Below are positions 57,363-61,766 of a stretch of DNA of 64,000 nt, in pieces. Below the pieces are notes generated by a model. It did not search any database. It was not told the DNA's origin and saw only the letters and a program-made list of their open reading frames with translations. The DNA is from Escherichia phage vB_EcoM_CRJP21. The DNA lies in the sequence record OQ708376.1; one strand, 5' to 3'. Every line of letters begins with the position of its first letter. Within the stretch, counting starts at the first letter, position 1. A program made the translations under genes and the position numbers.

Positions 57363-57370
57363 TAAACCAA

Positions 57371-57402
57371 AGGACGGGATTTGTTATCTCGTCCTTTTTT
57401 TG
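57371..57402 (+). terminator. rho-independent terminator
   Basis: AGGACGGGAT-ttgtt-ATCTCGTCCT + TTTTTTT. Confidence 0.7.
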
Positions 57403-58331: not shown

Positions 58332-58860
58332 AATCCTGAAAGGTTCCCATAAGGAAATGATTAAAAGCCTAATCCACTCGAAAATGTAGAGGGTAGATGA
58401 GTAGTCCTTTCAGTACGAACAGCAGATGAAACCCGTTAGATGATGGCATAGTTTGAACCACTCACGGCAATGCGGCTGTATAAAGAACTCCAATAGGATA
58501 AAGAGAGTTCCTCGATAGACATATAAGGATCGCACCTTACCAATTATCTAAGGGAGATTTCATAAGAAATATGCGGTCGGAATTATACAATATAGTTGCG
58601 TCCAAATTTTGTGAAATCAAATACAAGTACTGGTCATATGGTATTTGTATTATGTGTCGGGATGTTTAAGACCGACGACCGTTGCTACAAGAACCGCGAT
58701 AGAGAGAAACAGAGCAACCCGCTTTCGTCTCGTAAGAGAATTCGTGATATGAACTATGTGAAGGCCACCAGCGTCAAACTTTTTTGTTCTTTCCCCTGCG
58801 GGGGGATGAAATATGCTCAAGCAAACCCCGTCAATATTAATTAAAAGAAAATAGTACTTG
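58332..58860. other. non-coding GC-richer island (candidate structured RNA or decayed gene)
   Basis: no convincing ORF; several GC-rich hairpins (GTCGGGatgtttaagaCCGAC, CCCCTGCGGGG). Confidence 0.3.
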
Positions 58861-58871
58861 TAGAATTAGAC

Positions 58872-59492
58872 ATGCGTAGCATGATAATTCTACTGATGTT
58901 GATGCAATCAACGTCACGTATATTCATTGATGTTTCCATAGGAATAATGATGGCATTTATTAGAAAAGAAAAAACTGTTACTTATAAAACTTTGAATTTT
59001 GATGATTGCATTAATCAATCACAAGACGAAGATATCTTTACTGGATATGTGGTTATTAAAGAAAAAGGATGCATTTCTTATATAAAGGAATTGCAAAATG
59101 GAATTGAAGTAACTTCAGTTAAATTACTTCCTACTCAAAAACCAACAATATCAAAAGCCCAGTATGGTAATTATTTTGAAGAAAGATATAGTAATAATTC
59201 AATAAGTGTTAAGGCTCATATTATTAAAGGAGAACTAGAAGGAGAATATAGAAAATACAACCCACAAGGAAAATGTGTTTGGGTTAAATACTTCAATTCA
59301 GGATATGATGTAACATCTGAAATTATAGAGTTCTTAGGTTTAAAATGTACCCCTGAGACTATTCACGATTACAAGTTCAATACTGAAGAAGAGTTTAATC
59401 TGATGATGCGTTACGGTTCACATTTTAAATTTTTATATGAATATAACATTGACAGTAGTACTTTTGATAAGATAGTACACAACTGTCTCTAA
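58872..59492 (+). CDS. hypothetical protein (alt start 58950)
   Basis: track ORF; hydrophobic N-terminal extension may not be translated. Confidence 0.5.
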   Translation: MRSMIILLMLMQSTSRIFIDVSIGIMMAFIRKEKTVTYKTLNFDDCINQSQDEDIFTGYVVIKEKGCISYIKELQNGIEVTSVKLLPTQKPTISKAQYGNYFEERYSNNSISVKAHIIKGELEGEYRKYNPQGKCVWVKYFNSGYDVTSEIIEFLGLKCTPETIHDYKFNTEEEFNLMMRYGSHFKFLYEYNIDSSTFDKIVHNCL

Positions 59493-59508: not shown

Positions 59509-60030
59509 ATGTCGAAGAAGGATGCTTCGAAAAAACATTCAGTACATTTTAGTACTGGAAAAGATAACTGGACAACTCCAAAGGATTTCTTTGAAGATTT
59601 GGATGAACTCTGGGAATTTACACTAGATGCAGCATGTGTCAAAGAAACTGCATTGTGTGATAATTTTTTCACTCCAGAAGATGATTCACTGTCACAGGAT
59701 TGGGGAAATAATATAGTTTGGTTGAATCCACCATATAGTGACTTGAAAACTTGGTTATCCAAAGCAGTAGATGCATATAATAACGGGGCAACTGTAGTTA
59801 TTCTTGTACCCTCAAGAACCGATACAATTGCTTTTCAGGATTATGCTGCTAAAATATGTGATTGTATTTGTTTTATTAAGGGAAGATTGAGATTTGGTAT
59901 ACCAGAAGAACCCGATAAGAAAACAGATTCAGCACCATTTCCTTCGTGTCTGATAGTACTGGATAAGTACTTAACCACTGCTAAAATCAATTATCTTAAA
60001 TCTCTTGGGTTGGTGATGAAGAATTTATGA
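59509..60030 (+). CDS. phage-type DNA N6-adenine methyltransferase (Dam-like)
   Basis: WTTPKDFFEDL N-terminal motif and NPPY catalytic motif. Confidence 0.7.
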   Translation: MSKKDASKKHSVHFSTGKDNWTTPKDFFEDLDELWEFTLDAACVKETALCDNFFTPEDDSLSQDWGNNIVWLNPPYSDLKTWLSKAVDAYNNGATVVILVPSRTDTIAFQDYAAKICDCICFIKGRLRFGIPEEPDKKTDSAPFPSCLIVLDKYLTTAKINYLKSLGLVMKNL

Positions 60031-60560
60031 AAGAAACATGCGTATTAACTTTTGGACGTGTTAATCCCGTACATCGTGGACATGGTTTAGTTTTTGAAAA
60101 GGCCAAAACATTACAAGAACAGTACAATGCTGATTTAAAAATATATCTAAGCACCAGTACTGACAATATAAAAAACCCACTCCCACCTGAACTAAAAATG
60201 TATTATACAGAGGGATTCTATCCTTCAGTGCAAGAGAACATCTACACAGAAGACAATCTATTTGATATAATGAGAGAACTGGATGGAAAGTACTTAGATG
60301 TTCTTTTCATATGTGGTTCTGACCGTATTGATTCTTTTCAAAAAACTCTTGACATGTACAATGGTAAGTTGTATAATTTTTGTAGTATAAAAGCAATTCA
60401 AGCAGGTATTGACCGTAATGTAAGTCAATATAGCTCAACACAAATGCGTAACTTCGCAAAAAATGAAGATTTTGATAGTTTTCGTGAGTTTTTACCTGGA
60501 AATGACGAGGACTTAAAAATACAATTATTTGAAGACGTTATAAAATACATGAGGAAATAA
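60027..60560 (+). CDS. HxGH-motif nucleotidyltransferase (NMN adenylyltransferase-like)
   Basis: TFGRVNPVHRGH resembles GxFxPxHxGH; SSTQMR resembles the ISSTxxR motif. Confidence 0.5.
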   Translation: MKETCVLTFGRVNPVHRGHGLVFEKAKTLQEQYNADLKIYLSTSTDNIKNPLPPELKMYYTEGFYPSVQENIYTEDNLFDIMRELDGKYLDVLFICGSDRIDSFQKTLDMYNGKLYNFCSIKAIQAGIDRNVSQYSSTQMRNFAKNEDFDSFREFLPGNDEDLKIQLFEDVIKYMRK

Positions 60561-60562
60561 TT

Positions 60563-60856
60563 ATGTCAGTACTGTTCAAAACCAATCCAGTACTTTGGGA
60601 TCAAAATGAGCAATCAGGATTTCGTTCCATCCATGTTGAATACAAAGGTAATACTGTAGTTGCAATTATTGCTAACAAAACTCTAGGAAACTGGACTGCA
60701 CAGGTTGTTCCTATGGGATATTCTTACACATCTGATGAGGTTCAATTCCTGGCTGAACTATATCGTCAAGTGCCGTTTATCATTAATGTACTAGAAGGTA
60801 ATGATACATTATCACATGCAGATGTGATTAATTTTCTTGGAAACTTGCATGTGTGA
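60563..60856 (+). CDS. hypothetical protein (97 aa)
   Basis: track ORF; coupled. Confidence 0.5.
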   Translation: MSVLFKTNPVLWDQNEQSGFRSIHVEYKGNTVVAIIANKTLGNWTAQVVPMGYSYTSDEVQFLAELYRQVPFIINVLEGNDTLSHADVINFLGNLHV

Positions 60857-61731: not shown

Positions 61732-61737
61732 TGTACA

Positions 61738-61766
61738 TAGCCCGACATAAGTTCGGGCTATTTTTG
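61738..61766 (+). terminator. rho-independent terminator
   Basis: TAGCCCGA-cataag-TTCGGGCTA + TTTTT. Confidence 0.75.

Follow-up and report, generated by a model that had tools for sequence, protein, structure and literature searches.

Genes and features of the locus

The window analysed here is a 64,000-nucleotide stretch of sequence record OQ708376.1 (Escherichia phage vB_EcoM_CRJP21), read on one strand. It shares 99.8% identity with the Asteriusvirus jumbo phages SP27, PBECO4 and 121Q, and its source is an E. coli jumbo phage with a genome of 350 kb. The locus under study comprises two adjacent genes, ORF1 and ORF2 (Table 1), and both were recovered with the positions, strand and lengths originally proposed for them. 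In the SP27, PBECO4 and 121Q records, ORF1 is already labelled a methyltransferase and ORF2 a "cytidyltransferase". The pair therefore represents ordinary, previously annotated and deposited Asteriusvirus genes.

The ATG of ORF2 (60027-60029) overlaps the TGA of ORF1 (60028-60030), and a 4-nt overlap is likewise present in K64-1 gp580/gp581. ORF2 had been described as translationally coupled to ORF1; the overlap itself holds, and coupling is probable, judging from this arrangement. Both flanking genes are co-oriented with the pair. The upstream gene retains its synteny with the Dam-nucleotidyltransferase pair, and the downstream gene begins 2 nt past the ORF2 stop. Terminator-like hairpins mark the two boundaries of the gene block. 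Just upstream of the pair, at about 58345-58845, lies a structured RNA of ~480 nt that is supported by covariation and absent from Rfam.

Table 1. Coordinates of genes, motifs and flanking elements at the locus
Feature	Position	Strand	Description	Basis
Upstream hairpin	57369..57397	+	Intrinsic terminator-like, 12 pairs and T-run; upstream boundary of gene block	
Upstream ORF	58872..59492	+	206 aa, phrog_16210, no assigned function	ORF list, PHROG match
ORF1	59509..60030	+	Orphan Dam-family DNA N6-adenine methyltransferase, 173 aa	PF05869, phrog_111, PADLOC, TIGR01712
WTTPKDFF	59569..59592	+	Fits WxTPxxxF; N-terminal, ORF1 residues 21-28	Regex on translation
NPPY	59725..59736	+	Catalytic, amino-methyltransferase motif IV; ORF1 residues 73-76	Regex on translation
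ATGA overlap	60027..60030	+	ORF1 stop / ORF2 start	Sequence
ORF2	60027..60560	+	Stand-alone HIGH-motif nucleotidyltransferase (adenylyltransferase-like), 177 aa, phage-specific clade	
GRVNPVHRGH	60054..60083	+	(H/T)xGH nucleotide-binding signature; ORF2 residues 10-19	Regex, family alignment
KNPL	60171..60182	+	ORF2 family motif	N50, P51, L52 89-98% conserved
GSDR	60315..60326	+	ORF2 family motif	G97, D99, R100 invariant
SSTQMR	60432..60449	+	SxTxxR second nucleotide-binding signature; ORF2 residues 136-141	S136 96% conserved, R141 invariant
Downstream ORF	60563..60856	+	97 aa, phrog_14956, no assigned function	ORF list, PHROG match
Downstream hairpin	61737..61761	+	Intrinsic terminator-like, 9 pairs and T-run; downstream boundary of gene block	

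ORF1 is an orphan methyltransferase of the phage Dam family

ORF1 matches the Pfam Dam family PF05869 (E 2.3e-31; 109.2 bits against a cut-off of 28.1) over profile positions 7-149 of 169, phrog_111 (E 7e-56) and the PADLOC orphan methyltransferase model (E 1.4e-34). This above-threshold match, together with WTTPKDFF and with NPPY as the form taken here by the (D/N)PP(Y/F) catalytic motif of amino-methyltransferases, bears out the proposal of a Dam-type N6-adenine methyltransferase. ORF1 resembles the phage Dam family (PF05869/TIGR01712) in its full-length domain match, its NPPY motif, its small size and its phage origin. It differs in scoring 89.6 bits against the NCBIfam equivalog TIGR01712, narrowly under the cut-off of 97.05, and for this reason is assigned at the family rather than the equivalog level.

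The enzyme is an orphan, lacking a cognate nuclease, and would use S-adenosylmethionine to form N6-methyladenine in phage DNA. GATC sites are under-represented in the window, with 133 found against 208 expected, so that GATC need not be its target. Whereas the family and the catalytic NPPY motif are demonstrated, we infer the sequence specificity and the protective role in restriction evasion that had been suggested for it. As a phage methylase, ORF1 is routine.

ORF2 belongs to a large phage-specific nucleotidyltransferase clade

ORF2 is a member of the phrog_3041 clade far beyond chance (E 9.6e-58). This is the family annotated as "Cyanophage-encoded cytidylyltransferase" (PHROG 3041, part of 395), which includes the S-PM2, P-SSM2 and S-RIM "cytitidyltransferase" proteins; the 385-aa protein of S-RIM8 scores 219 bits with an HMM built from the ORF2 family. 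The family is found in 559 phage records by tblastn, mostly from cyanophages, and an exhaustive hmmsearch places the clade in 6432 clusters at 50% identity; T4-like cyanophages commonly carry it. Its database labels are contradictory, ranging over cytidyltransferase, nucleotidyltransferase, PPAT and "ribonucleotide reductase A", and a literature search on "cytitidyltransferase" returned no papers.

Against Pfam PF01467, ORF2 scores 17.1 bits, below the gathering score of 21, a threshold that is passed by the homologues of fHe-Yen9-04 (31.7 bits) and S-RIM8 (27.5 bits). Among 58 family members, 50 match PF01467 at E<0.01 and 57 match TIGR00125. ORF2 shows the traits of the HIGH superfamily, namely (H/T)xGH after strand 1, SxTxxR and a Rossmann-like alpha/beta fold. 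Such a fold is common to NMNAT, PPAT and class I aaRS.

ORF2 contains every residue that is invariant in the family, namely R11, P14, H19, G97, D99, R100, G127, R141 and F152. In the first signature, G18 is conserved in 98% of the 58 members and the position of H16 is occupied by T in 79%. The family alignment shows no conservation in the stretch that follows strand 3. The KNPL motif aligns with KNPF of the CBB NatV NMNAT, as does the N-terminal GRxxPxxxGH with its counterpart in that protein. The original prediction had pointed to a GxFxPxHxGH-type motif and an SSTxxR-like motif as typical of NMN or NaMN adenylyltransferases. The latter is present as SSTQMR, and the former stands as GxxxPxHxGH; the literal GxFxPxHxGH pattern fails at its third position, where ORF2 has V in place of F. 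Since HxGH and SSTxxR are signatures of the whole superfamily, they must not be read as specific to NMNAT.

Most clade members are 300-1100 aa long or have extra partners, whereas ORF2 is a bare 177-aa core. Elsewhere its fusion partners or neighbours are DUF6267, DUF5824/DUF5661, a Zeta/AAA_33 P-loop kinase or a phrog_764 protein; the P-loop kinase, DUF6267 and DUF5824 associations in other phages are in line with a small-molecule pathway. Some members carry strongly basic C-terminal tails. No significant match to DUF6267, the phrog_764 protein, FkbM methyltransferase, DUF5824/DUF5661 or the Zeta/AAA_33 kinase was found in PBECO4 and the window, and DUF6267 itself gave nothing against solved structures and the literature. 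PADLOC linked neither ORF2 nor the genes around it to a defence system. A weak AdfA (anti-DarT) Pfam match of the fHe-Yen9-04 homologue (E 0.005) was set aside as noise, not being repeated in other members. By sequence, ORF2 belongs to a huge clade of nucleotidyltransferases with the HIGH motif, specific to phages, and is its minimal version, standing alone.

Resemblance to NMN adenylyltransferases lies at the level of the fold

The predicted model of ORF2 has a pLDDT of 95.7. A BFVD fold search aligns it with other clade domains at a TM of about 0.9 and with an annotated phage NMNAT at 0.61. One fold search ranks NadM and archaeal NMNATs closest among solved folds; NMNAT, PPAT and NadD are separated by only 1-2 Z units, and two programs differ on the top family. 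Sequence identity is 13-17% to the NadM and archaeal NMNAT group (PDB 2qjt, 2qjo and 1f9a; NatV of KVP40 and CBB gp113) and 12-19% to CoaD/PPAT. Searching solved structures with the ORF2 sequence alone returned nothing, and profile searches gave weak matches throughout: MJ0951 (E 0.0015), PPAT (0.02) and NMNAT (0.05).

Curated models for NMNAT, NadD, NadR, FAD synthetase and PPAT give ORF2 only about 17-20 bits. The best of the NMNAT models, TIGR00482 for NadD and eukaryotic NMNAT, reaches 19.8 bits against a cut-off of 112.45 and covers residues 8-28 only; none of the 58 clade members comes near any curated NMNAT cut-off. In contrast, the true phage NMNAT CBB gp113, used as a control, scores 6e-64 against solved NadM, and 287 bits (E 2e-85) against the NCBIfam NMNAT/Nudix model. 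NatV shows no BLAST similarity to ORF2, which lacks both the Nudix fusion and the Nampt partner of the NadM-type NatV and whose GSDR and Y111 motifs differ from those of NadM. Sub-threshold NCBIfam matches among the 58 members fall to NadD (42), PRK08887 (18), NadR (12), archaeal NMNAT (12), CoaD (7) and FAD synthetase (6), a sequence pattern that leans towards pyridine-nucleotide enzymes.

NMNAT membership by way of phrog_395, which ORF2 matches at E 9e-25 and which also contains CBB NatV, was rejected: the family HMM scores true members at 190-220 bits and gives NatV 12 bits over 70 N-terminal residues. phrog_395 is probably heterogeneous. A homologue search started from the NatV NMNAT domain yielded no sequences. 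The likeness of ORF2 to NAD-making enzymes is therefore one of fold only, for which "NMNAT-like" is a fair description. The NMNAT reading fits the superfamily motifs and fold and failed against every curated NMNAT model; the accompanying caveat, that a different cytidylyl- or adenylyltransferase was just as possible, proved apt. ORF2 passed no curated family model.

ORF2 lies outside the described phage NAD pathways

Three phage NAD pathways have been described, NARP1 (Adps and Namat), NARP2 (Nampt and Nmnat) and NARP3 (PnuC and NadR) (bioRxiv 10.1101/2024.02.11.579819; PMC13464706). The observation that the window holds no Nampt-like partner was confirmed and extends to the PBECO4 reference genome. 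Nampt, NatV, NadR, PnuC, Adps and Namat are not named in the PBECO4 annotation or in the parts of SHEFM2K examined, and tblastn with CBB Nampt and NatV gave no match below E 4 in PBECO4 and the window. Because no partner gene occurs in PBECO4 and the window, ORF2 falls outside NARP1, NARP2 and NARP3. Of the two findings that were to count against an NAD role, the absence of other NAD-pathway synthesis genes is borne out in the sequences searched; the other is not, as ORF2 was assigned by no profile to a particular family outside NAD metabolism.

In the related phage CBB, the genes for NatV (gp113) and Nampt (gp115) lie at 55-58 kb, apart from an ORF2 homologue at 34.07-34.60 kb. GAP32 likewise has an ORF2-type gene besides a bona fide NatV and Nampt pair. 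The ORF2 homologue is therefore not the NARP2 NMNAT of these phages.

The pairing with Dam is probably inherited synteny

Dam and the nucleotidyltransferase are again neighbours in K64-1, fHe-Yen9-04 and L022, a pairing not found in cyanophage, Cassandra and marine phages. This adjacency is inherited synteny within the Rak2-like jumbo phages and does not in itself speak for a joint function. A functional coupling of the two enzymes was accordingly discarded as unsupported, the adjacency being confined to the syntenic Rak2-like lineage.

Discussion

We consider it likely, at a probability of about 0.72, that ORF1 is a Dam methylase, that ORF2 is a nucleotidyltransferase of a phage clade outside the NARP pathways, and that their adjacency is inherited. 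The substrate of ORF2 allows several readings. It is possible, if on balance unlikely, that the protein is a genuine stand-alone NMN/NaMN adenylyltransferase, raising or sustaining NAD+ during infection from NMN or NaMN of host salvage (PncA/PncB, or NMN from the NAD-dependent ligase); in that role it may counter NAD-depleting defences or feed the phage Sir2, macro and Nudix enzymes. The nearest solved folds, the leaning of the weak NCBIfam matches and the resemblance of GRxNPxHxGH and KNP(L/F) to GRFQxxHxGH and KNPF of CBB NatV are consistent with this, as is the presence in the genome of proteins that consume NAD or process ADP-ribose (Sir2, two Nudix hydrolases, a macro-domain protein and a WGR protein). 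A cyanophage paper also terms the clade an NMNAT homologue (PMC10665884). However, ORF2 misses by a wide margin all curated NMNAT models, which the true phage NMNAT passes, and CBB and GAP32 keep an ORF2-type gene besides NatV and Nampt, whereas PBECO4 and the window have neither Nampt nor NadR nor PnuC. The distribution of the clade, mostly in cyanophages, is decoupled from that of phage Nampt, and the conserved partners that it has in other phages (DUF6267, DUF5824, FkbM methyltransferase) are enzymes or domains outside NAD metabolism. A tentative alternative of scarcely better standing is an adenylyltransferase of PPAT-like, FMN-adenylyltransferase-like or novel type, making a non-NAD ADP-linked cofactor or signal. 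It has to contend with a CoaD model (TIGR01510) touched by just 7 of the 58 members, all at E>0.01 and far under the cut-off, with the lack of an evident reason for a phage to double host CoaD or RibF, and with the absence of pathway partners from PBECO4 and the window.

The GenBank and PHROG annotations imply a cytidylyltransferase, which would supply a CDP-activated alcohol or sugar, such as CDP-glycerol, for envelope or glycan modification. Beyond these labels, the weak match to the "cytidylyltransferase-like" PF01467 points the same way; glycerol-3-phosphate and phosphocholine cytidylyltransferases (GCT/CCT) are not the closest fold or family match of ORF2, and we regard this assignment as very improbable. 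The evidence favours an adenylyltransferase over a cytidylyltransferase, with ATP preferred to CTP solely on the predicted fold neighbours. Equally remote is a TmcAL-like adenylate-forming enzyme acting on nucleic acid or another macromolecule, perhaps with the NPPY methyltransferase in DNA or RNA modification. TmcAL-type enzymes carry out carboxylate activation in tRNA modification. MJ0951, a TmcAL-type HIGH_NTase1 protein, is the best sequence-profile match of ORF2 in the PDB, and the basic tails of some clade members could point to a nucleic-acid substrate. The domain has a methyltransferase beside it in two settings that are unrelated, Dam at this locus and an FkbM-type enzyme in marine phages, and genes for RNA ligase and polynucleotide kinase are found farther out in the neighbourhood.

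For a clade nucleotidyltransferase outside the NARP pathways, the following mechanism may be proposed. ORF2 would be translated from the mRNA of ORF1 as the minimal catalytic core of a clade with HIGH signatures and a Rossmann fold. The GRVNPVHRGH and SSTQMR loops would hold an NTP by its phosphates, with ATP the most probable, and the KNPL and GSDR loops would place a phosphorylated small-molecule acceptor. The enzyme would then move the NMP onto the acceptor phosphate and free pyrophosphate, giving a dinucleotide of the ADP-X type. This course of chemistry, from the NTP-binding and acceptor loops to nucleotidyl transfer and pyrophosphate release, we hold with good confidence. A pyridine mononucleotide, NMN or NaMN, is predicted as the single most likely acceptor, a choice that is itself tentative.

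More speculative, and rather improbable, is the view that the clade constitutes a new phage-specific adenylyltransferase that makes NAD independently of NARP1-3, or a novel ADP-linked metabolite, with the 177-aa form of Rak2-like coliphages serving as a one-gene module that draws on host precursors.

ORF2 is noteworthy only for its clade, which has no experimentally established substrate, yet is one of the more common accessory enzymes that large phages carry. If NMN adenylyltransferase activity proved true, it would represent a Nampt-independent phage support of NAD pools, with a bearing on NAD-depleting defences such as Sir2-HerA, DSR and Thoeris. A different acceptor would define a new phage metabolite.

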